64,000 bases of DNA. It comes from Chitinophagales bacterium (GTDB taxonomy: Bacteria > Bacteroidota > Bacteroidia > Chitinophagales > JADIYW01). Below, piece after piece: positions 106 to 20,479 of this stretch. Made by a program: the position numbers and the translations under genes. The first letter of the stretch is position 1; each line of letters opens with the position of its first letter. The notes beneath the pieces are model-generated. The model was not told the origin of the DNA, searched no databases, and saw only the letters and a program-made list of their open reading frames with translations. The stretch covers positions 405,391 through 469,390 of the forward strand of contig JAXLTX010000003.1 in NCBI GenBank assembly GCA_046329775.1, read 5' to 3'.

Positions 106-1419
<1,314 letters not shown>

Positions 1420-1430
1420 TCAATAGACAT

Positions 1431-1503: not shown

Positions 1504-1629
1504 TTTCTGTTTTACAACAGCAGCACATTGCATTGTTCAAAAAGCTTTTCATCAAGACAAACATAGAGAATTAGTTTCTTAAAACAAAATGATGGGGAAT
1601 TATAATTCTTAAATAATGTAAATACCAGA

Positions 1630-1908
1630 TTACCCGATTTCGAGACTGCCTCCATCCTTAATGGTTAATGTACCACCTTTGATTTCCAAACCGCCTTTAA
1701 TTTTTATAGTTGCATTATCTGTAATTTGCACATCCGCGCCATCTCTTATCACCATATTCTGATTGGTATTATCTGTGAGTGTAATGGTAGTATCTACCTG
1801 CGTGCCGCAATGTGTACACTCTATATGTGTTTCATCTATGTCTTTGAAATCGTTACCACCGCATTGAGGGCAAGTAATTTTCTGTTTATCCATATTGAGA
1901 TATTCCAT
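1630..1908 (-). CDS. Small zinc-ribbon protein with a short beta-solenoid-like Gly/Ile-rich tail (hypothetical)
   Basis: This is a 92-aa ORF with the motif CPQCGG...CTHCGT, followed by repetitive IKGG/IKDGG segments. It starts 3 nt after the stop of the upstream esterase gene. Confidence 0.55.
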   Translation of the reverse strand: MEYLNMDKQKITCPQCGGNDFKDIDETHIECTHCGTQVDTTITLTDNTNQNMVIRDGADVQITDNATIKIKGGLEIKGGTLTIKDGGSLEIG

Positions 1909-1911
1909 AAA

Positions 1912-2844: not shown

Positions 2845-2999
2845 GAGTTACTTTATGTTACGTAACACCAAATTAACCAATTTTGAGTGCTTCTGGTTTG
2901 ATTTTTAACAAGAAATGTGAAAATTTTATGAACAGCTATGAAATGCTATCGTGTAGAATCAACGGATTTCAGGGCAGAAAACAGGCATATCTGATGTAC

Positions 3000-5966
3000 T
3001 TACACCAATGCATCATACAGCACCTCCACCGGATGCAGTGCGTGCCTTTGGGTGCCATCCTTGATTTGATGGCGGCAGCTGGTACCGGGTGCGGCTATGA
3101 TGGTTTCTGCGTCGGCACTTCTCACAGCCGGAAATAAGACCAACTCTCCTACCTGTATGGAAACGTCGAAATGTTCTTTCTCATATCCGAAACTGCCGGC
3201 CATACCACAGCAGCCGCTTGGAATATTTTCAACATGATAATTTTCCGGCAAACTCATCAGCTGTATGGAAGATTGAACAGACGATAATGCCTTCTGATGG
3301 CAATGTCCGTGCAGTTTTATTTGCTTGGTGGCTTTGGTAAATTGAGCAGATGTTATGTTTCCTTTCTGAATTTCGAGTGCAATAAATTCATCGATGATGA
3401 AACAGTTTTCCGCCAATTTTCTGGCAGCCTGAATTTCACTCTTATCTACCAGTCTCGGGTATTCATCTCTAAAGGATAAAATGGCGGATGGCTCGATACC
3501 AATGAGGGGGACATCGTTATTGATCCAGGTTTTAAAGATGGCAACATTCTCTTTCGCCAGTTTCTGCGCTTCCTGTATCAAGCCTTTTGACAAATGCGCA
3601 CGACCACTATCGGCGTGTTCAATATATGCAATCTCGTAGCCGAGTTTTGTCAGTAGTTTTAGCGCCTTGATGCCAATCTCCACATCATTATAATTGGTAA
3701 ACTCATCAAAAAAGAAATACACTTTTCCTTTTTGCGGAATTTTCAATTCCAACTCCTTCGTGTTTTTCTTATACCAGCTTAACAGCGTTTCTTTGTAATA
3801 CAAGGGCATCGAACGATTCGGTGCAATCCTCAGTATTTTCTTCAATAATCCGGATGTGAATCTATTGGTCAATCCAAAATTGCTGAGAGATGGGAATAAC
3901 ATGGCCAATTTGCTTAACTGTCCGATATTTGCAATCGCTTTTGTTCGCAAGGGCACGCCATTCTCTTTATAATACTGATGTAGGAATTCCGCTTTCAGTG
4001 TCGTGATGTCCACATTAGACGGGCATTCGGAGGAGCATCCCTTACAACTGAGGCATAAGTCCATCACTTCATAGACTTCCTTGTGATTGAACTTATTCGC
4101 TTGTTCTGAATTTGTCAGGAAATCTCTCAAAATATTCGCGCGCGCGCGCGTGGTGTCTTTTTCATTTCGGGTAGCCATATAAGACGGACACATGGTGCCT
4201 CCGCTGCCCGGCAATTTGCGGCAATCGCCGCTTCCGTTGCATTTTTCTGCAGCACGCAGAATCCCTTCGTCTCTATCGAAATTGAAGACTGTATCAAACT
4301 GTCGGGTCTCCTGATTTTCTTCATATCTCAAAGAGGTATCCATCGGCGGCGTATCAACAATCTTACCCGGATTCAGGATATTATTGGCGTCAAACGTGTA
4401 TTTCAGCCTGCGCAACAATTGATAATTCTTCTCTCCTACCATCAGCGGAATAAACTCTCCCCTTACGCGACCATCGCCATGCTCTCCACTCAGGGAACCT
4501 TTATATTTTTTTACGAGATGCGCCGTCTCCGTAGCAATGGTTCTGAACAATACCCGATCTTCTCTTTTCTTCAAATCCAGGATAGGGCGCAAATGCAATT
4601 CGCCCGCCCCGGCATGCGCGTAATACACGCTGCGCTGCTGATGGCTGTTCATCATATCGGTAAACTCGCCGATATATGCCGGCAAATCATCCACAGCCAC
4701 GGCCGTATCTTCAATCACGGCCACCGCCTTTGCATCGCCGGGAATATTGGCCAGAAGCCCCAAACCTGCCTTGCGCAGGGTCCATATCTTGTTGATGTCA
4801 TTTCCATACAGATAAGGGAAATGATATCCTATATTTTCCTTCTCAAAATCATTTTGCAATGCTTTTGCTTTGGTATCAATTTCTTCTTTCGTTTCCCCGT
4901 GAAACTCCACACATAAAATGGCTTCTGGATCTCCTTTTACAAAAAAACGGTTTTTGCGCTGTTCTATATTTTCTTTGGTGCAATCCAGGATTATCTTGTC
5001 AATCAGCTCACAGGCACTCGGCTGATGCTTCATGGCAATTACCGTGGCTCGTAAACTTTCTTCCAGCGTCTTGAAATGGATGGCGACAACGACACTCTCT
5101 TTGGGTGGAATCGGCACCAGATTTAATTTTATTTCCGTAATGAAAGCTAAGGTTCCCTCACTGCCGCAAATCAGTTCACACATATTGAACGGCTTGCCGT
5201 TTTCGGCAAATGGCTGTTGCTTCAGCAATTCATCCACAGCATAGCCTGTATTTCTGCGATGTATTTTCTGATTCGGGAATTGCTGCAGAATCTCTGCCTG
5301 CATTTCCTTGTCGGATAACTCTTGCTGCAAAAATTTATAAATAGCGCCTTCCAGATTTCCCTGCTGTGTTTTCTTGTAGAAATCCTGTGTCGTGATATTT
5401 CCGAAAACCACTTCCGAGCCATCACTCAAAAACCCTGAAAGCTCAAGCACATGGTCGCGCGTGCTGCCATATACGATAGAATTGGCACCGCAGGAATTGT
5501 TACCCACCATACCGCCTATCATGGCGCGGTTGGCGGTAGACGTTTCAGGTGCAAAGAACAGTCCGGAAGATTTCAACTGACGGTTCAGTTCATCGCGTAC
5601 TACACCGGGCTGCACGATGCAGTAGTTATGCTCCTTGTTTATTTCAAGAATATTGTTGAAATGTTTGGAAACATCCACCACGATGCCGCCGCCCACCACC
5701 TGACCACCAAGCGAAGTGCCGGCCGTACGGGGAATGACAGACGTCTTATGTCTGGCTGCAAAATGCAGCAAGGTCTGAATATCCTTCCCGGATTTCGGGT
5801 AACACACCGCTGTCGGATATTCCTTATACACCGAGGCATCTGTGGCATACAGTGCACGCATGGTATCATTAAAAAATAATTCGCCTTCTAAGGAAGAAGC
5901 CAACTGTTCCAGTAATGCGGTGTCGAAGTTTTGTTTCATTTTACGGTACTTCAATGCGGTAGGCAA
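3000..5966 (-). CDS. FAD-binding plus (Fe-S)-binding oxidoreductase (GlcD-like FAD-linked oxidase fused to a GlcF-like 4Fe-4S/CCG domain)
   Basis: This is a 988-aa ORF. It has an N-terminal FAD_binding_4-like region and the cluster motif CLSCKGCSSECP. The C-terminal Cys-rich CCG-type motifs include CCGMAGSFG. Confidence 0.85.
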   Translation of the reverse strand: MPTALKYRKMKQNFDTALLEQLASSLEGELFFNDTMRALYATDASVYKEYPTAVCYPKSGKDIQTLLHFAARHKTSVIPRTAGTSLGGQVVGGGIVVDVSKHFNNILEINKEHNYCIVQPGVVRDELNRQLKSSGLFFAPETSTANRAMIGGMVGNNSCGANSIVYGSTRDHVLELSGFLSDGSEVVFGNITTQDFYKKTQQGNLEGAIYKFLQQELSDKEMQAEILQQFPNQKIHRRNTGYAVDELLKQQPFAENGKPFNMCELICGSEGTLAFITEIKLNLVPIPPKESVVVAIHFKTLEESLRATVIAMKHQPSACELIDKIILDCTKENIEQRKNRFFVKGDPEAILCVEFHGETKEEIDTKAKALQNDFEKENIGYHFPYLYGNDINKIWTLRKAGLGLLANIPGDAKAVAVIEDTAVAVDDLPAYIGEFTDMMNSHQQRSVYYAHAGAGELHLRPILDLKKREDRVLFRTIATETAHLVKKYKGSLSGEHGDGRVRGEFIPLMVGEKNYQLLRRLKYTFDANNILNPGKIVDTPPMDTSLRYEENQETRQFDTVFNFDRDEGILRAAEKCNGSGDCRKLPGSGGTMCPSYMATRNEKDTTRARANILRDFLTNSEQANKFNHKEVYEVMDLCLSCKGCSSECPSNVDITTLKAEFLHQYYKENGVPLRTKAIANIGQLSKLAMLFPSLSNFGLTNRFTSGLLKKILRIAPNRSMPLYYKETLLSWYKKNTKELELKIPQKGKVYFFFDEFTNYNDVEIGIKALKLLTKLGYEIAYIEHADSGRAHLSKGLIQEAQKLAKENVAIFKTWINNDVPLIGIEPSAILSFRDEYPRLVDKSEIQAARKLAENCFIIDEFIALEIQKGNITSAQFTKATKQIKLHGHCHQKALSSVQSSIQLMSLPENYHVENIPSGCCGMAGSFGYEKEHFDVSIQVGELVLFPAVRSADAETIIAAPGTSCRHQIKDGTQRHALHPVEVLYDALV

Positions 5967-6041
5967 GGATGTTTACAGGTTAAATTTACAAAATGCGGCA
6001 GGATACTTGGCGGAACTTGTCAGAATTAATGATTTAAAAAT

Positions 6042-6066
6042 AAAAAAGCCTCCTTTGAAAGAGGCT
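6042..6066 (-). terminator. Terminator of the 137-aa gene
   Basis: The stem agcctc (6047-6052) / gaggct (6061-6066) is followed by a T-run on the minus strand. Confidence 0.5.
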
Positions 6067-6098
6067 CACGTAAACAACATCATTTTATATCTCAGGTA

Positions 6099-6512
6099 TT
6101 ACTTCTTCACCTTGATGAACTGGTTGTCGATGTTCTCGAAATTGGAATACAGGAAATTGTAATCAATGGCATTTTCCTTACCATATTCATTCAGAATCAG
6201 TTTTCCGTTCTTTTCGGTCCATTTCCCGTCGATGGAGTAGTTTTTCACCCTGAAATAATCCTGCGGTGAAATGGGTACTACCTGCACAAACTGGTGGTAA
6301 GTACCATCCGAGTTCAGAGAGAGATAGAAAATTTTCTTGGCCACTCCGTCTTCCGGTGAGTATTTCGTCTGATCCTGCTCATATTTCCAGATACTCCGGA
6401 TAACAGCCTCCGTATTTTTGTCTGTATCATTATTGCTTGCGAAGACCGTAAACGGTACAAAAATGAACACCAGCATGTAAAACTGTACTAATATTTTGTA
6501 TATCTTTCTCAT
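6099..6512 (-). CDS. Secreted hypothetical protein
   Basis: This is a 137-aa ORF with a hydrophobic N-terminal signal-like segment. No family was recognised. Confidence 0.5.
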   Translation of the reverse strand: MRKIYKILVQFYMLVFIFVPFTVFASNNDTDKNTEAVIRSIWKYEQDQTKYSPEDGVAKKIFYLSLNSDGTYHQFVQVVPISPQDYFRVKNYSIDGKWTEKNGKLILNEYGKENAIDYNFLYSNFENIDNQFIKVKK

Positions 6513-6767
6513 ACACTAAAGTTTTATTTTTTCACCCCCCGCCCCGACATAGAATTTACACAATATCATATATAACTATAACACGCAACTGGCACAAAAA
6601 GTTTCATTGGAGAATGAAACTTTGAAATTCTAGGGTAATGAAGTTCTAAATACTTTAGGGTCTTGTTAAAAGCCGTAAACAACAGATTAAAAGAGAGAGA
6701 AACGTAAACAAATCTGTTTGTTGATACAATATTACATCAAGCTTTACAACCCGTAAGGGCAACTTTG

Positions 6768-6818
6768 TAAATGGCAGTTTAAACACAATAAGTGGCAGAT
6801 TTGGCTTTATAAGTGGCA
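6768..6818. repeat. Three phased direct repeats of TAARTGGCA with 21-bp periodicity
   Basis: The copies are taaatggca at 6768-6776, taagtggca at 6789-6797 and taagtggca at 6810-6818. Confidence 0.6.
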
Positions 6819-6827
6819 AAAAAGACA

Positions 6828-6855
6828 AAATCCGTTGATAAACATCAACGGATTT
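6828..6855 (-). terminator. Rho-independent terminator of the M13 peptidase gene
   Basis: A perfect 12-bp stem, aaatccgttgat / atcaacggattt, has the loop aaac. On the minus strand it is followed by gtctttttt. Confidence 0.7.
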
Positions 6856-6908
6856 GGATAATAACTATAAATAACTAATTAAAAAACAGATACTTATACA
6901 AATACCTT

Positions 6909-8930
6909 TTACCAGATTTTAACGCGCTCTGCGGGAGTGCGATACATTTTAGTGCCGGGTTCTATATTGAATGCATTGTAGAAATCATCCATATTGGAGA
7001 ATGGTCCGTTTACACGCAGGAATGCAGGCGAATGTACATCCGTCAGTACGCGGGTAGCCAGTTCCTCATCGCGCTGATGACCTAACCAACCCAGTGCATA
7101 GCCTAGGAAGTATCGTTGTAACGGAGTTAATCCATCAATCGGTTTTCCTTCTTTGTACTGTGTCGTTTTCTTGAAAGCGTCTAATGCAATCACCAGACCG
7201 CCCAAGTCGGCAATATTCTCGCCCAAGGTGGCCTTGCCATTGATATGCATGGAATCCAGCACCACATAATTATCAAACTGGTCGATGTATTTCTGTGCCT
7301 TTTCATTGAACTTCTTTTCATCCTCTTCCAGCCACCAGTTTTGCAGGTTTCCCTTATCGTCAAACTGTCGACCTTCATCATCAAAACCATGGGTGATTTC
7401 ATGGCCAATAGTAGAGGCCGCCGCATATCCGTAGATGACTGCATCGTCTATATCTTCATCCCGGAATCCCGGAATGACAAAAATACCCGCCGGCAATACG
7501 ATTTCATTGTTGGACGGATTGTAGTATGCATTATACGTTTGCGGTGTCATGTCCCATTCGGTTCTGTCCACCGGCTTGTTGAGTTTGCCGATATTGTAAC
7601 GGAACCAGAATTTGTTGGCGTTTCTGATATTCTCAACCAGTGATTTATCGTTGGTCACCAGAGAAGAAAAATCTTTCCAGGTGGCGGGATATCCGACTTT
7701 CTTGGTGACGGAGTTTAATTTTTGCAGGGATTTCTGTTTGGTAGCCTCACTCATCCAGTCCAGGTTCTTGATGCGTTCTGCAAAGGCGGCAAACACATCA
7801 TCGCATAGACGTTCGTAACGCTGTTTGGTGGCCGGTGTGAAATTATCCTTCACATACAATTGTCCCAGAATTTCGCCCATGGCGCTTTCCTCCCATTGCA
7901 GCGCACGTTTCCAGCGCGGCAATTGTTCCTGTCTTCCTCTGATTACCTTTCCGTAAAAGCGAAAATCCTCGTTGTTTACTTTCTTTGGAAGATAATCCGC
8001 ATAGTTGGAAATCAGGTGAAAACGCAGGTAGTTTTTCCAAACCGCCAGCGATGTCTTTTTCCAGATGCTGTTCAGTCGGGTGAAGAATTCCGGTTGACCA
8101 ACAATCACGGAGTCGGTTTTGATATTCAGTTCTTTAAACACCTCGGTCCAGTTGATGGATGGCGTCAGCTGATTCAATTGAGCTACGGACATCTTATTGT
8201 AATTCTCATATGGATCGCGCAGATCTTCCAGTTTTCTGGATTGCTCCGCCAGTCCTTTTTCCAGTTCATAAACGCCGGTCGCTCCTGTTGTAAAGTCCGG
8301 ATGAATGAATTCCAGCATTCTGCCGAGGTGTTTGTTCTTGTAGTCTTTCACAATTTTCACCGTGCGCTCATCCTTGTTGAAATAGTAGTCGCGGTTAGGC
8401 AGTCCCAAGCCGCCCTGAGACAGATACAGCGCGTTGACATCGCTGTTTTTCATATCCTGATAAACGCCCAGATCAAAAGCCACGGGAACGCCGATGGAGT
8501 GCAGATGCGTTATGGCCTTCAGCAAGGTAGCTTTATCTTTGATGGCATTGATCATCTTGAGTTCCGCCGCAATGGGGCTTAATTTCTGCTTTTCGATGGA
8601 AACGGTATCCATGGCGGTACGATAGAAATTGGCAATCATTCGGGTATTGTTTTCCACCTTATCCAGTGTCTTATTTTGCAGTACTGCATTTTCACTGATG
8701 GTCCTGAGTTTTGTCCAAACATCTTCCTGCACCAGGTTGCCGATGCCCCATTGTGAATACGCTGCCGGAATAGGATTCTGTTTGATCCAGCCACCGTTGG
8801 CGTATTTGAAGAAGTCATCACCTGGCTTGGCGGTTTTGTCGATATTCTTTCCCACCACATCATTTTGCTGTGCAAATGACAGTAGTGAAAGTGAGAGTGA
8901 AAGTGAAAGTGCTATTAGTCTTTTCATCAA
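6909..8930 (-). CDS. pepO: M13 family zinc metallopeptidase (neprilysin / endothelin-converting-enzyme / PepO-like)
   Basis: This is a 673-aa ORF with a signal peptide and the HEITHGFDD zinc motif. The downstream GENIADLGG and NAYY motifs are typical of M13. Confidence 0.9.
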   Translation of the reverse strand: MMKRLIALSLSLSLSLLSFAQQNDVVGKNIDKTAKPGDDFFKYANGGWIKQNPIPAAYSQWGIGNLVQEDVWTKLRTISENAVLQNKTLDKVENNTRMIANFYRTAMDTVSIEKQKLSPIAAELKMINAIKDKATLLKAITHLHSIGVPVAFDLGVYQDMKNSDVNALYLSQGGLGLPNRDYYFNKDERTVKIVKDYKNKHLGRMLEFIHPDFTTGATGVYELEKGLAEQSRKLEDLRDPYENYNKMSVAQLNQLTPSINWTEVFKELNIKTDSVIVGQPEFFTRLNSIWKKTSLAVWKNYLRFHLISNYADYLPKKVNNEDFRFYGKVIRGRQEQLPRWKRALQWEESAMGEILGQLYVKDNFTPATKQRYERLCDDVFAAFAERIKNLDWMSEATKQKSLQKLNSVTKKVGYPATWKDFSSLVTNDKSLVENIRNANKFWFRYNIGKLNKPVDRTEWDMTPQTYNAYYNPSNNEIVLPAGIFVIPGFRDEDIDDAVIYGYAAASTIGHEITHGFDDEGRQFDDKGNLQNWWLEEDEKKFNEKAQKYIDQFDNYVVLDSMHINGKATLGENIADLGGLVIALDAFKKTTQYKEGKPIDGLTPLQRYFLGYALGWLGHQRDEELATRVLTDVHSPAFLRVNGPFSNMDDFYNAFNIEPGTKMYRTPAERVKIW

Positions 8931-9039
8931 AAATGTATTAGGTTGCTAAATTAGTGAATAAAATGCTGGGAATATTACAAGACAAACGGATTATTTATGA
9001 TGAATACCGATATGTCAGATTGAGCGCATCTTGCATCGA

Positions 9040-9486
9040 TTAAAAAATATCAAAGGAATCTTCCGATGATTCCCAGGCTGTTCTGTCGCCGTAAGTATTC
9101 AACTCCAGCATGTGGTAATCATCGGCAGCAATTTCGCTGTTAAAGGCCTTAAAATCATGACACTGGCAGATGTCCAGAACTTTTCCCTGTTTGACATCAA
9201 TGATGAGGTCCATGCGATGTTTGGAGTGGTTGCCGACAAAGGAATATCCGCCGTCACAAGCATTCGGACAAATATCGCTGTTGCAAAACCCGGGATGTCC
9301 GACCAGTTTAGTGTTTTTATTATGCCTGAAGATATTGAACACGTTTCCCAGTGTTTCTATAAAAGTTGCCTTGGATACATTCTGATAGGTTTTATCCTCA
9401 TCCAGAATCAGCTCCACCATTTCAATATCCATTTCCTGAATGTAATAGATGACAGCTTCGGATTGCGTGGTGGGTTTGGTTGACAT
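9040..9486 (-). CDS. Cys/His-rich hypothetical protein co-transcribed with the helicase
   Basis: The ORF spans 9040-9525. I prefer the ATG at 9486 (MSTKPTT...), which lies 19 nt after the helicase stop. The protein carries the segment HPGFCNSDICPNACDGG...CQCHDF. No family was recognised. Confidence 0.55.
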   Translation of the reverse strand: MSTKPTTQSEAVIYYIQEMDIEMVELILDEDKTYQNVSKATFIETLGNVFNIFRHNKNTKLVGHPGFCNSDICPNACDGGYSFVGNHSKHRMDLIIDVKQGKVLDICQCHDFKAFNSEIAADDYHMLELNTYGDRTAWESSEDSFDIF

Positions 9487-9505
9487 ACTATGATTAAAAG
9501 TTTGA

Positions 9506-10867
9506 CTAGTACAATAATAATTCATTTTGTGCTCTGGTGATGGCAGTATATTGCCATTTTAAATTTGGAATATAGTAAGTATTTACATAAACATTTTTCC
9601 ATTCACCGCCTTGAGCTTTATTGCAAGTAATAGAATGACCATAGGTTAATCTTATCGCACCAATATAACGGTCGTCTTTTGCATTCTTAGATTCACGATA
9701 TACATTATTTTTAGCGAATCTGTCGTGACGTAACTGTTTCTCTTTTTCTAATGTAAGAACACCACTTGGATTTGTTATACTATCCAGTAAAATATAGTCG
9801 TCAATAATTTCATCTTTGCCTTCTATATTTTTTGCTTTTAATTTTATGGGCATAAAATGTAACCCAGCTACCAATTCTGTATGTGTTGCATCAAAATCTT
9901 CCACAATTACGTGGTCGCCATTAAACAATCGCTGTCCGTTTCTTTCCCAGCTTTGTGTTACCAGTAAGTAATCTCCTTTTTCAATCATCTTGCAGTTTTT
10001 CCCAAACAACTTCTCTCGAACAATACTATTAAATAATTGATTACTGTTGTGTGAACAGGCAATCGAAATACTGTTATCCGGTCCATTTTTTTTGAACTCA
10101 TTCAGATAATGGGTTGTTGCTCCTGCAATCCTGCCACCAAACTTAAAGCATTCTAATTTTGAAAACGTTTTATTGTTTTCAATGGCGATTCTTGTATTAA
10201 TGGCATTCTTCATGATTTTACTTCCATCTTCCTGACGTTTGACCTCTGTAAGTATCTGATGATTACCTTTCCAATTGAATTTTGTTTCCAGATATTCCGG
10301 TAATAACGCATAGGAATTTTGTTCGTTGATGGGCGGCAATTGATTTCTGTCGCCTAAAAATATAATCTTGCTGTTAGCATGGTGTTGCTTTACAAATTTC
10401 ACCAAATCTACCAGTAAAGAATTATCACTCAGAAACAAGCTATCTTCCTGTTTATAGGTTTCTGCGTTTATCATAGATGCTTCATCTATAATGAAGATAG
10501 AAGGTGCATCTTCCTCATTGTCTCTCTGTTTTAGGGTGTACTTGATTTCACCTGTTTCAGGATTGCAATTAACCAAATAAATCATGGAATGAATAGTGGA
10601 ACTCAACACCTTGGATTTTCTCCCTAAGATACGCGCTGCACGTCCCGTTGGAGCGGCAATACAATATCCGATTTCCCTGTTGTTCATATAACCCACCAAG
10701 GCTGTGGTAATGGATGTTTTTCCCGTACCCGCAGCACCGCACAAAATAAAGAAGTCGTCATTATTCTCCGGATTTACAAATGCTGCCATAGCCAATAAAG
10801 CAGCTTTTTGTTCCTGTGTAGGGCAGTCAAATTGTAAAAAATCAAGGATGGAGATACCGTTTTGCAT
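9506..10867 (-). CDS. SF1B RecD/Dda/Pif1-like ATP-dependent DNA helicase
   Basis: It has the Walker A motif GAAGTGKTS, the Walker B-like motif FIIDEASM, and the C-terminal motif VI-like TCNKAQGGEW...YTAITRAQNEL. The start was moved to the ATG at 10867 because the longer ORF runs over a promoter/operator-like region. Confidence 0.8.
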   Translation of the reverse strand: MQNGISILDFLQFDCPTQEQKAALLAMAAFVNPENNDDFFILCGAAGTGKTSITTALVGYMNNREIGYCIAAPTGRAARILGRKSKVLSSTIHSMIYLVNCNPETGEIKYTLKQRDNEEDAPSIFIIDEASMINAETYKQEDSLFLSDNSLLVDLVKFVKQHHANSKIIFLGDRNQLPPINEQNSYALLPEYLETKFNWKGNHQILTEVKRQEDGSKIMKNAINTRIAIENNKTFSKLECFKFGGRIAGATTHYLNEFKKNGPDNSISIACSHNSNQLFNSIVREKLFGKNCKMIEKGDYLLVTQSWERNGQRLFNGDHVIVEDFDATHTELVAGLHFMPIKLKAKNIEGKDEIIDDYILLDSITNPSGVLTLEKEKQLRHDRFAKNNVYRESKNAKDDRYIGAIRLTYGHSITCNKAQGGEWKNVYVNTYYIPNLKWQYTAITRAQNELLLY

Positions 10868-10902
10868 AACTTTTAATTTATGTACCAAAGTTACGATGCA
10901 TG

Positions 10903-10921
10903 TGTGCAGTGAAAGTGCACA
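10903..10921. promoter_or_regulatory. Palindromic operator-like site TGTGCA-N7-TGCACA in the helicase promoter
   Basis: The site reads tgtgca gtgaaag tgcaca followed by gaaaactaattt. It lies just upstream (on the minus strand) of a TAacTTTG -7-like box (10893-10886), about 18 nt before the ATG at 10867. Confidence 0.6.
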
Positions 10922-10951
10922 GAAAACTAATTTATAACTAAATAGAATCAA

Positions 10952-12511
10952 TTAATCTATTATTTGGGTCTCCAATAATTTCTTCTGATTTTGCAGAAGA
11001 AATTATTGATTTAATACTCTTAAGATGGCTCAAATAATGATTATATTTTGTTTGATTATTGTTGTTATCCATTGAATAAGGGAATAAATGCAATGAAGTG
11101 CTAGCGTAAAAGTACATTGTATATGAGTTTCCAGCAAAAATGATAGTGTATAATGTCTATCATGAACCATTTTCTTTTTAATTATAGTTTTATTCTTCAT
11201 AATGCCAACTTATTTCTTAAATATTATTACAATCTTATATCAATTTTCTTTTAGATCGTAGATTCAATTCATTTTTCTTACTCTTTACTCATTTTCTTTG
11301 ATTTCTAAGTAAGAATAATATTTTGAATACTTGTAAAAATTAAAAGTCTAGATTTTTCACAGATCAGGTAGATGTGTTAAAAGATCTCACAGGAAATGCA
11401 ATATTATCTAAAACTAATATCTGTAAAATCAATCTTCTGATATACAGATATAAGATCAGTTCTCATTAGATAGTGTATCATTTAATCACTTTGACTCTCA
11501 TCAAGCATCCGAATTTAATCTATTGAATAAGTTAATGCTCACTCTTTTGGTAGCGATGGATAAAAAGATAAGAATATATCTTCTGTTTCTTTTTTAGCTG
11601 TGAGAATTCAACGTCTATCAATATTCACTGGTGTTTCGTAATAAACGAAAAACCTCATTACAATATTTAACTTGCTTTTGTGATTGACAGTTTACTGGTC
11701 TTTTCAAATATTGCATAAATTAATATCAAAGATCTATGTAATACAATACAAAGTTAGCTGCATAAATCTCTTGTTTATGGTTTTCCTCTTCTTTTATTTA
11801 ACCTTTTACATATGTAAATCCCAATTCAATTTCTCACATATTTATTAATGTTCAATTTGTTTTTTTTAAATATTTTTGCAAAATCTTATGTATTCCATAT
11901 TTTCTATTTAAAATATTAGTATATCGTGAAATGAGTTTTTAAAATCTTCTTTTATTCCAAAGTGCAAAAATTCGATAAGAAAATTATTCATTAGTTTCTT
12001 TTAAAAAACTATGAACTCTGTCAAAAATCTCACTTTTTATTACATCAAAAATCTATGAAAATAAATCTTAATTTCTAACATTTGAAGTGCTTCAAAATTC
12101 AAACTACGTATACTATTTCTTTTAATTTTATCAAAACTCATTTCATGATTTTTAAATAAACAATATTAATTTTAGAATCTTACTTATTTTTAAAAAACTT
12201 TTAATATTGATTCATCAATTTTCAAAGTAAAGGTCATTCTTATAAAATAATATTCGTTTTAATCAATTTAGGCTATTTTTTTATTTTATTCTTGAGTTAA
12301 CCAATTTATTCTTAGAATAGTAAACCCTTTTTACGTCTAATCATTTGATAATAAGCGCCCAAAATTCTTCAAATTTCAATTGTATTTAGAACTTATCAAC
12401 TCATTAATAATTGTTTTAAATATTCCACATTGTTCCGTCAGATTAATAAAGTTTTTTAAACTGATTTTCTAGATTGTTATGTCCATCTTCTTTAATTATT
12501 TCTAAATATAC
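10952..12511. other. About 1.56 kb strongly AT-rich tract with no ORF of 60 aa or more in any frame
   Basis: The six-frame track is empty from 10952 to 12516. The composition is visibly much more AT-rich than the flanks. No transposase, integrase or recognisable RNA gene is present. Confidence 0.8.
10974..11007. promoter_or_regulatory. Perfect 14-bp inverted repeat (hairpin or operator)
   Basis: The arms are aataatttcttctg (10974-10987) and cagaagaaattatt (10994-11007), separated by the loop attttg. Confidence 0.6.
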
Positions 12512-12517
12512 TATATT

Positions 12518-12536
12518 TGTGCACTACAACTGCACA
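12518..12536. promoter_or_regulatory. Palindromic operator-like site TGTGCA-N7-TGCACA overlapping the WYL-gene promoter
   Basis: The site reads tgtgca ctacaac tgcaca followed by gaaaataaattt. It overlaps a TAtaTTTG -7-like box (12512-12519) and lies 14 nt before the ATG at 12550. Confidence 0.6.
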
Positions 12537-12549
12537 GAAAATAAATTTT

Positions 12550-13557
12550 ATGGCAATTAATAAAAATGCGTGGATAAGATACAAAACATTAGACAAATGT
12601 TTTAGTAGTAGATATAAAAAATATTATATAGATGATTTAATTGCGGAATGTGATAAGGTATTGGCTGAAATTGACCCAAATCATAATGGCATCAGCTTGC
12701 GACAGATACGCGATGATATTGCCTTTATGCGTAGTTCAGAAGGTTGGAATATAGAACTGGACGATGTGCGTGACGGAAAAAAATTGATTTATCGTTACAA
12801 AGATTCAGGATTTTCCATTAACAAGCAACCAATGAACAGCATGGAAGCAGAACAAATGCGTTCTGCACTATTATTACTGCAACGTTTTAGCGGCATGCCT
12901 CAGTTCGACTGGATACAGGAAATTATACCTCAGCTCGAAAAATCATTTGGTCTCAACGAAAAAGCCGAAGGCATTATTGCCTTTGATGATAATCCGGATT
13001 TAAAAGGAAGGCATTTTCTAGGTGAACTTTACCAACATATCTTGGATAAAAGTGTATTAAATATCAACTATCAGCCTTTTAATTCAGAAAATTACTCTTT
13101 GCTTACCATACATCCTTATTATCTGAAACAATACAACAAACGTTGGTATTTATTTGGTTGGAATGACGAAGCAAATAAACTTTTTAACTTACCATTGGAC
13201 AGATTTGTGAGCATTGAATCCATAAAGAAAAAATACCGAAAGAATAAAGAGATTAATTTCAACGAATACTTTGATGATATTATTGGCGTCACCAAACCAG
13301 ATGGTGTAAAACCTGTAAATATAGTTTTGCGGTTTGTTCCTTCTTTTGCAGCTTATATTCGTACAAAACCAATTTCACCTTATCAGAAACATAAAGATTT
13401 AGCAGATGGTTCTTTGGAAGTACGCTTAGAACTTATTCCAAATAAAGAATTATTTTCATTATTGCTCAGCTATGGTGCTCAGGTAACAATCCTCGAACCG
13501 GCATCGCTTGCAAGGCAAATAAAACAGGAATTCAATCGTGCTGCAGATCAATATTAA
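12550..13557 (+). CDS. WYL-domain transcriptional regulator (wHTH-WYL-WCX architecture; BrxR/CapW/PafBC-like)
   Basis: The ORF spans 12517-13557. I prefer the ATG at 12550 (MAINKNAW...). The WYL signature is YYLKQYNKRWYLFGW, and the overall length and layout match WYL regulators. Confidence 0.8.
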   Translation: MAINKNAWIRYKTLDKCFSSRYKKYYIDDLIAECDKVLAEIDPNHNGISLRQIRDDIAFMRSSEGWNIELDDVRDGKKLIYRYKDSGFSINKQPMNSMEAEQMRSALLLLQRFSGMPQFDWIQEIIPQLEKSFGLNEKAEGIIAFDDNPDLKGRHFLGELYQHILDKSVLNINYQPFNSENYSLLTIHPYYLKQYNKRWYLFGWNDEANKLFNLPLDRFVSIESIKKKYRKNKEINFNEYFDDIIGVTKPDGVKPVNIVLRFVPSFAAYIRTKPISPYQKHKDLADGSLEVRLELIPNKELFSLLLSYGAQVTILEPASLARQIKQEFNRAADQY

Positions 13558-13675
13558 TTAAGAGATTTGTATTTCACCTTATCGGCAGACTCTCCTACAG
13601 GGGACTCTGCGCTCAGAATCAGATAAACTTACAACGCAGCGTCCTCTTCGAGAGACTTGCTGGCAAATGAAGGAA

Positions 13676-15481
13676 TCAAACATTTCGTTCGTGCAGACTA
13701 ACATTAGTGGCACATAATACCAATTCTCCTTCTTCTCCGCTTTTAATTTCAGCTGCATTGCCTTCGTCCGTGTCTATGTGCATCTCCAGCTTAAATTTAT
13801 CCGATACACGAATAAGTACATTCTTAAATGTCAGCGGTCTGTCTTCATCATCCACATCCACACTGACCACATCCTTATCTTTCACCCCAAACAACTCCGC
13901 ATCTGCAGGGTGCATGTGTATATGCCTCCACGCCACAATCACCCCTTCTTTTAAGGTGACGCTGCCTTTGGGTCCCTGCAACGTGATACCCGGCGTTCCG
14001 CTCACATTCCCGCTTTCCCGAACCGGTGCATCCACCCCTAAGAAGAATTCATCTGTCTTGGAAATCTCCACCTGATCTTTCGGTCGCAGCGGCCCCAGTA
14101 TACGCACGTTCTCTATCTTATTCTTCTTACCCACAATCGTTACGGTTTCATTCGCAGCGTACTGTCCGGGTTGCGACAAAGGTTTATATTCCGTCAGTTC
14201 GTAATCTTTTCCGAATAAGACATCCACCGTCTCCCGGGTCAGATGCACATGACGCGCAGAAATGGCAATCGGAATTTTCGGCACGCAATTCACCTTATTC
14301 TTCTCTTCAATGATCTTTTGCGTTTCCAGTGCAATGGCCAGCTGTTCATCCGTTCGTATGGCCAGAATCTTTACACGGGAATTTTCATCCGAAATATTAT
14401 ACACTTCATTTTCTTCACTCAGCTTTACCGATTTGTTTTTATCATCGTCGAGCATGATTCCCATAAACTCTAAGCCCTGACAAACCCTGTTTCTGATTTC
14501 AGGACTGTTTTCGCCAATCCCTGCGGTAAACAATAATACATCCACACCGCTCATCACGGCGGCATAAGCACCGATGTATTTTGTAAGCCGGTGTGTAAAT
14601 ACCTGTATTGCCAGGCGAGCGTCTTCATTGCCGTTTTCTGCATGCTGTAAGATGTCGCGCATATCATTTCCCAATCCGCTCAAGCCGGCAAGTCCCGATT
14701 TCTTATTCAGGAAATTCTCCACCTGTTCGCATGTCCAGTTTTCTTTTTGCTGCAAAAAGGTCACGATGCCCGGATCGGTATCTCCGGCACGTGTTCCCAT
14801 CACCAGGCCTTCCATGGTCGTCATGCCAAAAGACACCTCCACACTTCTGCCAAATTCAATGGCACAGATACTCGCACCATTACCCAGATGACAGGAAAGG
14901 ATACGCAGATTCCGGATGTCCTGTTTGAGATAATCCGCAGCTTTTTGTGCAACGTACTGATGGCTGGTGCCATGAAATCCGTAGCGTTTGATGTTGTATT
15001 TTTCTGCAATCTCTTTGTCTATCGCATAATGCTTTGCACGGTTGGGCAGGGTTTGATGGAAGGCGGTATCGAAGACGGCTACGTTCGGCAAGCCCGGAAA
15101 AACTTGCTGTGCCGCCTTTATGCCGGCAAGATTGGCAGGGTTGTGCAGCGGTGCCAGATCAATCAGCTCTTCGATGGTTTTGGCAACCTGTTCATCTATA
15201 AGTACAGGTTGGTAATATTGATCTCCTCCATGAACCACGCGATGCCCTATTCCGCTGATGGTCATGTCTGCCAGTTCATTCTTCAGCGTCTGCAGACAAA
15301 ACAGAAGAATGGATGGAAATGATATTTCGCCACTGTAGGTGCGTGTTTCACCGTTAAATTTTATATCCCCTACCTCGGGTAAACGTTCAGCATTCAGTGT
15401 TGAAGCGGATTGTTGTGTTACCGTATCTATGACATCTAATTTCAGGGATGAGCTGCCGCAGTTGACGCTAAGGATATACAT
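13676..15481 (-). CDS. ackA: Acetate/propionate kinase fused to a PduL-type phosphate acyltransferase
   Basis: This is a 601-aa ORF. The N-terminal ~400 aa are AckA-like (ILSVNCGSSSLK, GFHGTSH, HLGNGASI). The C-terminal ~200 aa are PduL-like (ISARHVHL...RHIHMHPADA...MHIDTDEGNAA). Confidence 0.85.
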   Translation of the reverse strand: MYILSVNCGSSSLKLDVIDTVTQQSASTLNAERLPEVGDIKFNGETRTYSGEISFPSILLFCLQTLKNELADMTISGIGHRVVHGGDQYYQPVLIDEQVAKTIEELIDLAPLHNPANLAGIKAAQQVFPGLPNVAVFDTAFHQTLPNRAKHYAIDKEIAEKYNIKRYGFHGTSHQYVAQKAADYLKQDIRNLRILSCHLGNGASICAIEFGRSVEVSFGMTTMEGLVMGTRAGDTDPGIVTFLQQKENWTCEQVENFLNKKSGLAGLSGLGNDMRDILQHAENGNEDARLAIQVFTHRLTKYIGAYAAVMSGVDVLLFTAGIGENSPEIRNRVCQGLEFMGIMLDDDKNKSVKLSEENEVYNISDENSRVKILAIRTDEQLAIALETQKIIEEKNKVNCVPKIPIAISARHVHLTRETVDVLFGKDYELTEYKPLSQPGQYAANETVTIVGKKNKIENVRILGPLRPKDQVEISKTDEFFLGVDAPVRESGNVSGTPGITLQGPKGSVTLKEGVIVAWRHIHMHPADAELFGVKDKDVVSVDVDDEDRPLTFKNVLIRVSDKFKLEMHIDTDEGNAAEIKSGEEGELVLCATNVSLHERNV

Positions 15482-15612: not shown

Positions 15613-17694
15613 ATGCAAAAACCACTCTTACTCTTCCTGCTCACCTGCTGTCTTTCTTCTGCATTCTCTATTGAAATCAACACGAAGAATATAAAAATCA
15701 TCCGTGACAAATGGGGCGTGCCTCATATTTACGGAAAGACAGATGAAGAAGTGGCCTATGGTCTGGCCTGGGCCACCTGCGAAGATGATATCAAATCCAT
15801 GCGGGAAAACCTACTGACGGCACGTGGCAGACTGGGTGAATTGAAAGGTAAAGACGGGGCCATCATGGATTTTCTGTGTGCCTTCATCGGTGCGCGTGAG
15901 AGTGTGGATAGATTGTATGACAAGAGTTTCTCTCCCAAATTCAAGAGCATCCTCAGTGCTTATGTGCTGGCTTGCAATAATTATATCAAATTACATCCGG
16001 AAGAAGACATGATGAAGGATTTGCTTCCGATTACGGAAAAAGATATGATTGTAGGCTATACGGTGGGACTGGCCCTGATGACGAATGTTCCGTTTTCCAT
16101 CATGAAAATTTCTAACGGCACCATTGGCACTTCCACCTTAAATGCACCCAAAGGAAGTAACGGATTTGCCCTGAACGGCAACAAGACGGCGGATGGCAAC
16201 ACCTACCTCGGTATCAACTCCCATCAGCCGCTGGAGGGCCCTTATTCCTGGTATGAGGCGCACCTGCATTCGGATGAAGGCTGGAATATTCTGGGGGGAA
16301 CGTTTCCGGGTGGAGTCACCATCTTTCACGGCGCCAATGAACATCTGGGATGGGCACATACGGTGAGCTTTGCAGACCACGATGATGTATATCAGCTGAA
16401 AATGCATCCGTCGGAAAAACTGAAGTATGAATACGATGGCAAATGGCTGGAATTGAAGGAGAAAAAAGTGAGGATGCGGGTGAAAATCTGGTGGATCATT
16501 AAAATTCCTGTCACTAAAAAATTTTATGAAAGTGTGTATGGCCCGGTGATGGAGAAAGACGGCAACTATTTTGCGCTGCGTTTCCCTTCAGCCTTTGATA
16601 TTCGAGGTGCGGAACAATGGTACCACATGAACAAAGCCAGGAACTTTGATGAATTTCAAACGGCAGTGAAAGAGATGGCATTACCGGGTATGAATATCAT
16701 TTATGCGGACAAGGACAATAACATCATGTACCTCGATAATGGACATTTTCCGAGAAGAGCCAAAGGGTATGACTGGTGGCATGTGCTGCCTGGAAACACC
16801 TCAGCCACCAACTGGAAAGCCAATGACTATTACCCTTATGACACGCTATTGAAGGTGATTAATCCAAAGTGCGGCTATGTGTTCAACAACAACAATACGC
16901 CATTTAATTGCACCTCAAAAGAAGACAACCCCGACAAAAATTCACATCCGCTGAAAGATTATTATTTCGCGTATGATGACAACCGTTCTTTACGCACCAG
17001 CTATCTGTTTGCCAACAGTGGCAAACTGACTTACGAGGATTTCAAGAAGATAAAATACGATCAGTCGTTCATGAATCCGGCCTTTAATTATGCCATGATA
17101 AACATTGAAGATGTACTGCATCTGGATACAAAGAAATATCCCCAGATTAAAGAAAGCATTGACATGCTGAATAGATGGAACAGAAGTGCCGATGTAAACA
17201 ACAAACAAGCCGCTATGGTAGCGTTGATTACCCGTTCTGTAATCGACAGGCTGGTCAAAGAAGGACATTTCCCGGCAGTGCGCACCAAAATCAAGGAGTG
17301 GCTCTTAGTGCAATGCGTGGAAGATGCACAGGCGCACCTGAAAGAACATTTCGGAACGATTGAAGTTCCACTGGGTGATTTGCAAAAACTGGTAAGGGGC
17401 AAAAAGGAATTACCGATAGGCGGCATACCGGATGTGATTGCCACCATGTGGATTTCCAAACATAAAAACGGTACGTTTAAGGCGGAAGTGGGAGAAACCT
17501 ACATCGAATTGGTGCAGTTTACTCCAAACTGCCCTGTTATTGAAAGCATCTCACCATATGGTACCAGTAATGTGGAAGGCAATAAGCATTACGATGACCA
17601 GATGGATTTATTTGTGCAGCAGAAATGCAAAAAGATGAGCATGAATTACGATGAAATCATCAGAGATAAAGAAAGCGAGTATAGTCCGAAGTAA
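15613..17694 (+). CDS. Penicillin/AHL acylase family Ntn-hydrolase
   Basis: This is a 693-aa ORF with a signal peptide. The putative autoprocessing nucleophile context is PKGSNGFAL. Overall it resembles the penicillin amidase (S45) family. Confidence 0.8.
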   Translation: MQKPLLLFLLTCCLSSAFSIEINTKNIKIIRDKWGVPHIYGKTDEEVAYGLAWATCEDDIKSMRENLLTARGRLGELKGKDGAIMDFLCAFIGARESVDRLYDKSFSPKFKSILSAYVLACNNYIKLHPEEDMMKDLLPITEKDMIVGYTVGLALMTNVPFSIMKISNGTIGTSTLNAPKGSNGFALNGNKTADGNTYLGINSHQPLEGPYSWYEAHLHSDEGWNILGGTFPGGVTIFHGANEHLGWAHTVSFADHDDVYQLKMHPSEKLKYEYDGKWLELKEKKVRMRVKIWWIIKIPVTKKFYESVYGPVMEKDGNYFALRFPSAFDIRGAEQWYHMNKARNFDEFQTAVKEMALPGMNIIYADKDNNIMYLDNGHFPRRAKGYDWWHVLPGNTSATNWKANDYYPYDTLLKVINPKCGYVFNNNNTPFNCTSKEDNPDKNSHPLKDYYFAYDDNRSLRTSYLFANSGKLTYEDFKKIKYDQSFMNPAFNYAMINIEDVLHLDTKKYPQIKESIDMLNRWNRSADVNNKQAAMVALITRSVIDRLVKEGHFPAVRTKIKEWLLVQCVEDAQAHLKEHFGTIEVPLGDLQKLVRGKKELPIGGIPDVIATMWISKHKNGTFKAEVGETYIELVQFTPNCPVIESISPYGTSNVEGNKHYDDQMDLFVQQKCKKMSMNYDEIIRDKESEYSPK

Positions 17695-19257: not shown

Positions 19258-20479
19258 AGTATGAATACGATGGCAAATGGCTGAATTGAAGGAGAAAAAA
19301 GTGAGGATGCGGGTGAAAATCTGGTGGATCATTAAAATTCCTGTCACTAAAAATTTTATGAAAGTGTGTATGGCCCGGTGATGGAGAAAGACGGCAACTA
19401 TTTTGCGCTGCGTTTCTTCAGCCTTTGATATTCGAGGTGCGGAACAATGGTACCACATGAACGCCAGGAACTTTGATGAATTTCAAACGGCAGTGAAAGA
19501 GATGGCATTACCGGGTATGAATATCATTTATGCGGACAAGACAATAACATCATGTACTCGATAATGACATTTTCCGAGAAGAGCCAAAGGGTATGACTGG
19601 TGGCGTGTGCTGAAACACCTCAGCCACCAACGGAAAGCCAATGACTATTACCCTTATGACACGCTATTGAAGGTGATTAATCCAAAGTGCGGCTATGTGT
19701 TCAACAACAACAATACGCCATTTAATTGCACCTCAAAAGACAACCCGACAAAAATTCACATCCGCTGAAAGATTATTATTTCTTGATGACAACCGTTCTT
19801 TACGCACCAGTATCTGTTGCCAACAGTGGCAAACTGACTTACGAGGATTTCAAGAAGATAAAATACGATCAGTCGTTCATGAACCGGCCTTTAATTATGC
19901 CATGATAAACATTGAAGATGTACTGCATCTGATACAAAGAAATATCCCCAGATTAAAGAAAGCATTGACATGCTGAATAGATGGAACAGAAGTGCCGATG
20001 TAAACAAACACGCTATGGTAGCGTTGATTACCCGTTCTGTAATCGACAGGCTGGTCAAAGAAGGACATTTCCCGCGTGCAAAATCAAGGAGTGGCTCTTA
20101 GTGCAATGCGTGGAAGATGCACAGGCGCACCTGAAAGAACATTTCGAACGATTGAAGTTCCACTGGGTGATTTGCAAAAACGTAAGGGGCAAAAGGAATT
20201 ACCGATAGGCGGCATACGGATGATTGCCACCATGTGGATTTCAAACATAAAAACGGTACGTTTAAGGCGGAAGTGGGAGAAACCTACATCGAATTGGTGC
20301 AGTTTACTCCAAACTGCCCTGTTATTGAAAGCATCTCACCATATGGTACCAGTAATGTGGAAGGCAATAAGCATTACGATGACCAGATGGATTTATTTGT
20401 GCAGCAGAAATGCAAAAAGATGAGCATGAATTACGATGAAATCATCAGAGATAAAGAAAGCGAGTATAGTCCGAAGTAA
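19258..20479 (+). pseudogene. Frameshifted 3' fragment of the acylase gene (copy B)
   Basis: It is homologous to 16424-17694. The reading frame is broken into the pieces 19695-19976, 19981-20208, 20076-20423 and 20234-20479. Confidence 0.85.

Follow-up and report, generated by a model that had tools for sequence, protein, structure and literature searches.

What do a helicase, a small cysteine-rich protein and a WYL-domain regulator do together at one chromosomal locus? The question is raised by a 64,000-nt stretch of the Chitinophagales contig JAXLTX010000003.1, referred to throughout as the window (64 kb), in which the list of open reading frames (ORFs) shows three intact genes between those for an M13 peptidase and an acetate kinase–PTAC fusion. 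The helicase (HEL, 453 aa; 9506–10867, minus strand) is delimited by its ORF, its Pfam matches and an ATG shared by the orthologues, and the small protein (SML, 148 aa; 9040–9486, minus strand) by its ORF and a family alignment. The regulator (335 aa; 12550–13557, plus strand) is a WYL–WCX protein by Pfam. The locus is read here as a reduced member of a group of WYL-controlled, helicase-anchored islands of Bacteroidota whose role would most likely be directed against phages or mobile elements, a reading to which a probability of about 0.6 is given.

An earlier sequence-only reading had described a helicase gene followed 19 nt later by the gene for the 148-aa protein, on the minus strand between the pepO-like and ackA genes, with a WYL gene divergent from them. 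The two-gene arrangement is as described; a longer 161-aa frame of the small protein, from 9525, overlaps the helicase. The WYL gene does lie on the opposite strand, but what was overlooked is the distance to it. The interval between the helicase and WYL genes (10868–12549) measures 1.68 kb, has a GC content of 20–28% and holds no ORF of 60 aa or more. Most of it, a stretch of 1.55 kb at 10945–12500 with 23.7% GC and no reading frame, occupies the position that other genes fill in related loci, and is referred to as the cargo slot.

A scan of the helicase family (one genome per species, by helicase alignment) returned 52 loci, all of them in Bacteroidota. Gene content was counted over the 36 loci in which the helicase is full-length and the sequence upstream of it extends for at least 3 kb, using the analysis’ own ORF clustering and hidden Markov model searches. 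The recurrent map consists of a WYL gene on one strand and, on the opposite strand, a series of genes of which this helicase is the last. A divergent WYL gene is found upstream of the helicase in 21 of the 36 loci, a retron-type reverse transcriptase (RT) between the two is likewise found in 21, and a ~245-aa protein, p244, in 15.

What fills the slot differs from one relative to the next. It may hold a frameshifted DUF3127 gene (L010, helicase 94% identical to that of the window), an AAA_15 pair (L064, 87%; L083, 78%), iREC sets (L079 and L081, 85%), a DUF3127 gene in the same ackA/pepO synteny as in the window (L067, 84%), or RT, p244 and DUF3127 together (L012, 69%). The island RTs match the PADLOC profile RT-Protease_XI (4e-107), as well as RT-TIR_XII and RT-Toprim_I-C, and are without those fused domains. 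The p244 protein has no Pfam match and carries an invariant RN-x(2-4)-HR motif, which we take to be the HEPN signature; by that signature, it would act as an RNase. In place of RT and p244, some loci encode an RT-HisKin-conflict protein, a 227-aa protein (p227) and an iREC protein, and others an AAA_15/AAA_21/DUF3696 ATPase with a ~320-aa partner. This AAA_15/DUF3696 ATPase matches the NsnB, PDC-M55A, AriA and GajA profiles. The conflict-system Pfam domains found in the relatives are HisKin-conflict, iREC and TBP-TOTE. Beside the WYL gene, several sister loci also have a second AAA_15 pair and a gene (c6) that, by eye, resembles a type I restriction–modification methylase gene. At the other end of the range are compact loci (L031, L032 and L057) that consist of the WYL gene and helicase, in some cases with SML, and lack any cargo.

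By gene order and homology, then, the WYL gene, its predicted operators and the helicase make up a conserved frame; the cargo slot that it encloses is swappable and, in the window, empty. The defence context proposed in the sequence-only reading is upheld on two grounds, namely the retron-type RTs, conflict-system (HisKin-conflict/iREC) domains and AAA_15 ATPases that serve as cargo in the relatives, and the match of the helicase core to PDC-M16A, a profile of a candidate defence system (2.4e-92). The DUF3127 gene of L010 (1–178), immediately upstream of the helicase operator, runs over two different frames; either it is a pseudogene or the contig, which has 3.5x coverage, was misassembled.

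The link between the regulator and the rest of the island is made by a palindrome. The motif TGTGCA-N7-TGCACA, which had been noticed on both promoters, occurs exactly twice in the 64 kb, compared with 0 matches in 100 shuffles. Predicted operator 1 (TGTGCAGTGAAAGTGCACA; 10903–10921) lies 36 nt upstream of the helicase ATG, and predicted operator 2 (TGTGCACTACAACTGCACA; 12518–12536) lies 13 nt upstream of the WYL ATG; the two are the cores of a 34-nt direct repeat. In at least 16 related loci, the same palindrome precedes the helicase ATG by 36–48 nt, and it also adjoins the WYL start. On the helicase side, it is part of a larger module that can be followed through ~28 loci, in the order palindrome (or a lineage variant of it), 9–14 nt, TTTG, 18–30 nt and ATG. 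TTTG would be the −7 box of a Bacteroidota promoter by the published consensus (TAnnTTTG), and in the window the predicted box is TAACTTTG (10886–10893, minus strand), 18 nt upstream of the ATG. The module is kept even where the helicase is the last gene behind RT and p244, which implies that the helicase has a WYL-linked promoter of its own.

A second copy of the module stands at the WYL gene and faces the slot, and this layout of two modules recurs in many genera. In the cargo-bearing relatives, TTTG follows 12 nt past the WYL-side palindrome. The window has TTTA instead, within a degenerate −7-like box of the putative cargo-directed promoter (TATATTTA; 12503–12510, minus strand) that was recognised by aligning the window with L012, L064 and L011, and homology stops there. 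On the WYL gene side, a further box, TATATTTG (12512–12519), overlaps operator 2, an arrangement that would fit autoregulation of the WYL gene. With the divergent WYL gene in 21 of 36 loci and the palindrome at its regular distance from the helicase ATG, the proposal of WYL control through the predicted operators may be regarded as strongly backed by comparison.

Two observations concern sites that resemble the operator. A one-mismatch site at 35930 was considered as a further operator and rejected, as it lies inside a coding region. The 19-mer TGTGCAGCAGAAATGCAAA, also one mismatch from the operator, occurs twice (17613–17631 and 20398–20416), 2.8 kb apart, which suggests a duplicated segment or a repeated gene; the copies are probably unrelated to the WYL operator.

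In the retron-bearing loci L012 (7365–7640), L011, L017, L027, L038 and L044, a conserved sequence, (A)AGTTCTTTGAA(TGTC...), is located downstream of the WYL-side palindrome. It starts right after the operator–TTTG module, ~250 nt before the RT ATG, and is probably the 5′ end of the retron non-coding RNA (ncRNA), transcribed from the WYL-controlled promoter.

Whether the regulator activates or represses is a separate matter. Pfam recognises its WYL domain (5.6e-12, residues 157–223) and its WCX domain (5.8e-14, residues 255–332), and the gene is under purifying selection (ratio of nonsynonymous to synonymous substitution rates, dN/dS, of 0.11). No Pfam helix-turn-helix match was obtained for the N-terminus, and the PADLOC WYL profile PDLC01457 aligns from residue 47. 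Of the winged helix-turn-helix (wHTH) WYL regulator that had been proposed, the WYL portion is confirmed, with WCX in addition, and the wHTH portion is suggested by sequence pattern. A profile of 16 WYL orthologues, compared with solved structures, matched PafBC (6sj9, 7e-8), DriD (7u02/8tp8, ~1e-7) and the PafBC–RNA polymerase complex (7p5x), and BrxR, CapW and other solved regulators were absent from its nine matches at E<0.01. PafBC and DriD are activators of DNA-damage regulons that respond to single-stranded DNA (ssDNA), and PafBC replaces the −35 element at a comparable position in its promoters. If TTTG is the −7 box, the palindrome would span approximately −40 to −22, which is the place of the −33 element, and in the alignment of related loci the palindrome spacer shows no conserved −33 element. 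PafBC-like activation would be at least as compatible with this geometry as repression and de-repression. With activators as its nearest solved relatives and the operator at the putative −33 position, the regulator may be either an activator or, as expected from BrxR and CapW, a repressor that de-represses.

The same evidence supports a different account of the locus as a whole, in which a PafBC- or DriD-like, ssDNA-sensing activator would drive a DNA-damage or replication-stress module made up of a repair helicase and SML, the latter as an adaptor to the hub formed by ssDNA-binding protein (SSB). The retron and ATPase cargo of the relatives would then merely exploit a damage-inducible pair of promoters. 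PafBC and DriD are the only solved WYL relatives found by profile search, the placement of the palindrome above the −7 box without a conserved −33 element resembles a PafBC site, and the compact cargo-less loci (L031, L032 and L057) would be expected under such an account. The Dda/RecD2 fold of the helicase and the SSB-type tails of its partner proteins, both described below, point the same way. Against this, the block that carries the WYL gene and helicase is absent from relatives that have an 87% identical SML in the same synteny, which is unusual for repair genes; its GC content is below that of its flanks; nearly all close relatives have defence-type cargo in the slot; and within the 64-kb window the operator occurs only at this locus. 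A damage module is accordingly a possible but unlikely alternative. The defence and damage readings may both hold, with ssDNA as a possible common signal.

The present contents of the slot were searched at length. There are 35–53 stop codons per frame at 10945–12500, and reading TGA or TAG as a sense codon, as in alternative genetic codes, opens no long frame. Comparison with the cargo proteins of 67 loci (tblastn, blastx and blastn) found nothing alike beyond the operator ends, and the idea of a decayed retron, p244 or DUF3127 gene was rejected, as the same comparison yielded no cargo remnant. Likewise, tblastn and blastx with the sister RTs detected no reverse transcriptase, Rfam gave no match at E≤1, stop-masked minus-strand frames gave no Pfam match, and the phage and plasmid collections showed no similarity. 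The AGTTCTTTGAA start of the retron ncRNA found in sister loci is absent from the slot as well. Intergenic homology to relatives is limited to ~75 nt beside the helicase and ~47 nt beside the WYL gene, which correspond to the operator modules. A WYL-based metagenome scan for closer relatives of the slot returned only 11 loci, the best of them with 120 bp of upstream sequence.

RNA-folding z-scores in the slot are unremarkable save at the palindrome, at a hairpin at 10973–11008 and at another at ~11414–11454. The hairpin at 10973–11008 is a perfect 15-bp inverted repeat with a 6-nt loop (folding z −3.3 to −4.5), upstream of the helicase promoter module, and may be the terminator of a former cargo unit. 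The strand composition of the slot resembles that of a minus-strand coding region. On these features, the slot reads as the site of lost or replaced cargo, its AT-rich DNA being either old decayed sequence or sequence with a role of its own.

If cargo was lost, the three remaining genes might themselves be a decaying leftover on the way to becoming pseudogenes. The non-coding slot and the TTTA in the cargo-directed −7 box are in keeping with such a course, as is the frameshifted DUF3127 gene of the 94% identical sister L010. All three genes of the window, however, have intact frames with conserved motifs, they are under purifying selection (dN/dS 0.05–0.25 against several relatives), and both operators are perfect matches to the palindrome. 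Decay of the whole locus is for these reasons considered very improbable.

The borders of the variable segment were located by comparison with relatives that lack it. In blastn alignments of L009 and L001 with the window, homology stops at the ackA stop (~13684) and resumes at 9479, in the first SML codons. From this break it follows that the WYL gene, slot and helicase form a presence/absence block of 4.2 kb (9480–13683), which is present in some and absent from other relatives with 80–87% identical SML. The helicase and WYL genes of the block have a GC content of 32–39%, compared with 45–50% in the flanks; SML, at ~42%, is nearer to the flanks. The low GC content of the block and its presence or absence among close relatives are further points in favour of a defence role. 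Also within the part missing from relatives without the WYL gene and helicase is a spacer of 118 bp (13558–13675), on which the WYL and ackA genes converge. It contains an imperfect GC-rich inverted repeat, GCAGAGTCCCCTGTAGGAGAGTCTGC, which may be a bidirectional terminator.

A clean indel of 4.2 kb at a conserved chromosomal site is also what might be left by a mobile element. On that account, the locus would be the remnant of a replication or maintenance module, consisting of the helicase with the SSB-like DUF3127 protein and DnaB_C-like ATPase of sister loci, that is silenced by a WYL repressor, and the defence genes would be the element’s own cargo. DnaB_C-like, SSB-like (DUF3127) and RT proteins do occur beside the helicase in sister islands, and phages commonly encode Dda-like helicases: HEL-like sequences occur in 176 phage records at E≤1e-10, the ten best being listed at 25–31% identity. 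Yet no integrase, transposase, relaxase, att-like direct repeat or tRNA is found at the block borders, the frame occurs at differing chromosomal sites without common flanks, neither the sequence nor the fold of SML is matched in phages, and nothing similar to the gap turned up in phages or plasmids. An origin as a mobile-element remnant is thus rated as improbable.

The helicase is the constant last gene of the unit. Its start, the ATG at 10867, is common to all orthologues, and its Pfam matches are AAA_30 (9.5e-19), AAA_19, PIF1 and UvrD_C_2. The motifs GAAGTGKT (Walker A), DEAS, GD.NQLPP, NKAQGGEW and TRA are invariant in the alignment of relatives, and dN/dS against three relatives is 0.05–0.08. 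An AlphaFold2 (AF2) model with a predicted local distance difference test score (pLDDT) of 85 was compared with solved structures by Foldseek. The best matches were DSH9 (1.6e-23) and T4 Dda (3.7e-23), followed by RecD2 (6e-19), with template modelling (TM) scores of 0.58–0.67; the top matches include the complex of Dda with a gp32 peptide, RecD comes after RecD2, and the Bacteroides Pif1 is clearly more distant. The protein falls below the equivalog cut-offs of RecD2 (TIGR01448, 99 vs. 500 bits) and RecD (TIGR01447, 64 vs. 310 bits). HEL is, in sum, an intact enzyme of the Dda/RecD2 type of superfamily 1B (SF1B) under strong purifying selection.

The PADLOC search that had been suggested for the region was informative for the helicase, which matches PDC-M16A over profile positions 3–482 of 721 only, and gave no match for the small protein. 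PDC-M16 is a PADLOC candidate system in which an SF1B helicase is fused to a TBP-TOTE domain. Two sister islands, L015 and L026, show both forms side by side. In each (~1200–10000, minus strand), the WYL gene heads a co-directional operon whose further genes encode a fused RT-HisKin-conflict protein, the 227-aa protein, an iREC protein and a helicase–TBP-TOTE protein of 734 aa. The short helicase and SML are divergent from this operon, so that each island has two paralogous SF1B helicases. The 734-aa helicase of L015 is a full-length PDC-M16A with its TBP-TOTE domain.

The small protein belongs to a sizeable family. No match to it exists in Pfam, NCBIfam, PADLOC or the PDB sequence set; a HMMER scan of 1.84e9 representative proteins found 748 cluster representatives at E≤1e-3, of which 451 reach E≤1e-10. 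The view of SML as a tiny family, based on the 11 representatives returned by a word-based search, was dropped on the result of this full scan. Members are either stand-alone proteins of 120–170 aa or N-terminal domains of proteins of 300–430 aa. Across 160 members, the invariant residues are D20, L28, F42, G66, C68, C73, G80, F83, G85, N86, S88, D105 and C109, whereas C77 is kept in 57 and H90 in 25 of the 160 sequences, neither being conserved. The description of a Cys/His-rich protein of no known family is confirmed, with the amendment that only three of its cysteines are invariant. What marks the family is C-x4-C ... D-x3-C and not a Cys/His finger with four ligands, and a classical zinc finger (e.g., SWIM) was rejected on account of the three invariant cysteines (C68, C73 and C109) and the absence of a Pfam match. 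The gene is under purifying selection (dN/dS 0.20–0.25), with a value of 0.25 even against a stand-alone copy.

Structure prediction, which had been proposed as a way to find a zinc-binding nuclease or sensor fold, gave a weakly NTF2-like predicted fold. The AF2 model of SML (pLDDT 70, good for residues 1–110) comprises three helices, a cysteine-bearing loop, a four-stranded sheet and a disordered acidic tail. Its top Foldseek matches in the PDB are all NTF2-like or SnoaL-like, yet weak (E≥3e-3, TM≤0.52). Several other identities were tried and set aside. The predicted helices and four-stranded sheet have no oligonucleotide/oligosaccharide-binding (OB) fold core, which speaks against SML being an SSB; hhalign gave a probability of 0.3% for a detached TBP-TOTE domain; and a phage-derived or anti-defence protein was discarded with no tblastn match in 50,697 phage records and no fold match in BFVD.

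The last ~40 residues of SML are predicted to be disordered and acidic, and the window protein ends in ...SSEDSFDIF. The final residue is F in 12 of 12 close relatives; of 82 stand-alone representatives, 42 have F and 28 have PF at the end, often as [DE]xxPF (e.g., DDEIPF and GDLPF). The tail thus has the form of an SSB tip, that is, disordered and acidic with a hydrophobic last residue (typically ...PF). Tips of this kind are shared with two other island proteins: C-terminal PF is found in 11 of 22 SML, 8 of 10 DUF3127 and 5 of 6 DnaB_C-like proteins, vs. 3 of 781 background proteins of the same loci. As these sequences are related and not independent, p-values for the tails overstate the case. 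The genes concerned encode DUF3127 proteins in L016, L017, L019, L036, L043 and L067 and DnaB_C-like proteins in L016, L017, L019, L024 and L036, with tips such as EDDLPF (a DUF3127 example), DDILPF and EDEAPF. In the literature searched, available in part, DUF3127 turned up only for a Pantoea phage genome.

The C-terminal tip of bacterial SSB is a docking site for many SSB-interacting proteins (PMC10164576). The SSB gp32 recruits T4 Dda through its C-terminal region (PMC11551737), RecD2 of Bacillus subtilis acts with SsbA and works with SSB at forks (PMC8989531), and yeast Pif1 associates with Rim1 (PMC3553982). By analogy of motif, SML would probably dock through its tail on the helicase or on SSB-binding proteins.

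SML is, at the same time, separable from the helicase. It stands alone in the same ackA...pepO synteny in relatives with 87% and 55% identical SML (L008/L009 and L001–L003, respectively), where both the helicase and the WYL gene are absent. At a second synteny, L012 has a full island with SML, and in L006 and L007 SML is retained and follows the gene of an unrelated AAA_14 ATPase. In Flavobacteriia, the WYL gene is followed first by an SML homologue, which has its own operator. Among the 36 loci, SML occurs somewhere in the island in 14 and directly after the helicase in only four. Neither the fixed two-gene module of the sequence-only reading nor the idea that the small protein might always travel with the helicase and a WYL gene survives these counts. 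By its distribution, SML is a facultative island accessory and not an obligate helicase partner.

A mechanism that joins these elements can be proposed in outline. Infection or DNA damage would supply a nucleic-acid-derived ligand that is bound by the WYL domain, and transcription from both promoter modules would change. This would turn on HEL and SML, together with the cargo in those relatives that have it. The helicase would translocate 5′–3′ on the ssDNA of an invader or of stalled forks. The SSB-type acidic tail of SML would probably dock to the helicase or to SSB-binding proteins, and would couple the putative three-cysteine metal-binding, NTF2-like domain to ssDNA transactions. Without cargo, the locus in the window would probably keep only basal helicase and SML activity.

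Several points weigh against this reading. The window locus has no recognisable effector (nuclease, HEPN domain or RT), and its helicase lacks the TBP-TOTE domain of PDC-M16, itself a candidate system for which we know of no experimental test. The nearest solved relatives of the regulator by profile comparison, PafBC and DriD, run DNA-damage responses and not defence. Helicases no more than 52% identical to that of the window have no WYL, RT or other such neighbours. The persistence of SML without the helicase in several genomes means that it does not strictly depend on it. As for docking, the idea comes from a sequence motif alone, and the main contact of T4 Dda is with gp32 residues 248–270 and not with the acidic tip (PMC11551737).

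A bolder version may be sketched, although it is tentative and, taken jointly in all its parts, unlikely. Here the Dda-like helicase would be the hub of an undescribed modular immune architecture of Bacteroidota, into which SML, DUF3127 and the DnaB_C-like ATPase would plug by their ...[DE]xxPF tails. Alternatively, the tails might impersonate host SSB and so detect or hijack SSB-binding phage proteins. A PafBC-like WYL activator would fire the duplicated modules, which would double as recombination sites for swaps of cargo such as retrons, RT-HisKin-iREC sets and AAA_15 pairs. The window would then represent the bare chassis, with SML as an autonomous, SSB-mimicking sensor able to act in the absence of the helicase.

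How the more restrained reading of a reduced defence island relates to described systems can be seen from five comparisons. The first is with WYL-controlled loci. As in BrxR–BREX, CapW–CBASS, PafBC and DriD, a WYL and WCX regulator adjoins genes expected to be under its control; an inverted-repeat site is predicted in its own and the target promoter, and nucleic-acid sensing is the expected trigger. Unlike in those loci, the genes under control are a Dda-like helicase, SML and a slot, and not BREX, CBASS or a genome-wide damage regulon, and similarity to solved structures extends only to PafBC and DriD and is weak (E ~1e-7).

The second comparison is with PDC-M16, of which no mention was found in the literature searched. 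The helicase core is homologous, and full-length PDC-M16A lies beside the RT-HisKin, p227 and iREC genes in sister islands L015 and L026, but the window helicase ends before the TBP-TOTE domain. No partner gene of PDC-M16 was recognised, as SML and the WYL protein match no PDC-M16 profile. TOTE denotes the “TPR, OB, TBP, Effector” conflict systems, as cited in PMC12458937.

The third is with type XI-like retrons. A 2026 preprint with a neighbourhood scope of ±2 genes describes two protease-less lineages, the WYL-associated TXI_C2like and the DnaB_C-associated TXI_noncan_h, and its text has no mention of an SF1B helicase, an operator or SML (bioRxiv 10.64898/2026.05.14.725207). Sister loci fit both lineages, with either a WYL gene divergent from an RT and an uncharacterised downstream protein or a DnaB_C-like protein with an RT. 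The window differs in having neither an RT nor a retron ncRNA.

The fourth is with T4 Dda–gp32 and RecD2–SSB, which resemble the present pair in that they are the best structural matches of HEL and in that SSB-type tails occur on the partner proteins here. The differences are that SML, which lacks an OB fold, is no SSB, that HEL is far below the RecD2 and RecD cut-offs, and that docking is putative. The fifth is with Gabija-like pairs. L064 and L083 have an AAA_15/AAA_21 ATPase upstream of the same helicase, with weak matches to GajA, AriA and PtuA. In contrast to Gabija, no Toprim domain was detected in the sister ATPase, which has DUF3696; the helicase belongs to the Dda-like SF1B enzymes, whereas GajB is UvrD-like; and the window has no ATPase.

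WYL-controlled defence loci, and both the WYL-linked and the DnaB_C-linked protease-less type XI-like retrons, are already known. As far as can be told, the new elements are the WYL–operator–helicase frame with its swappable slot, the conserved promoter geometry, the SML family and the shared SSB-type tails. If this reading holds, the WYL-linked type XI-like and the DnaB_C-linked retrons would be cargo inside a larger WYL/operator/Dda-like helicase frame. The fixed distance of the palindrome to the −7 box makes WYL regulation in Bacteroidota testable, as either activation (PafBC) or repression (BrxR). SML adds a family of at least 748 cluster representatives with no Pfam model, three invariant cysteines and an SSB-like tail, and the same tail on two other island proteins suggests a common plug-in to the ssDNA machinery. 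The cargo-less window, as a natural minimal configuration, could serve to separate the function of the chassis from that of the cargo.

Two minor observations concern the rest of the window. At 34109–40378, four co-directional genes encode proteins of 396, 190, 1221 and 286 aa, which is the size pattern of Wadjet (JetABCD). The last protein matches the PADLOC JetD profile (1.8e-9) and the first three match no PADLOC profile; the cluster, if Wadjet-like, is very divergent. The genes that flank the locus are the pepO-like M13 peptidase gene (6909–8930, minus strand) and the “ackA” fusion gene (13676–15481, minus strand). The latter encodes a 601-aa protein for whose orthologues Pfam matches are on record (PF00871 and PF06130), and its PTAC portion is a PduL-type phosphotransacylase domain.

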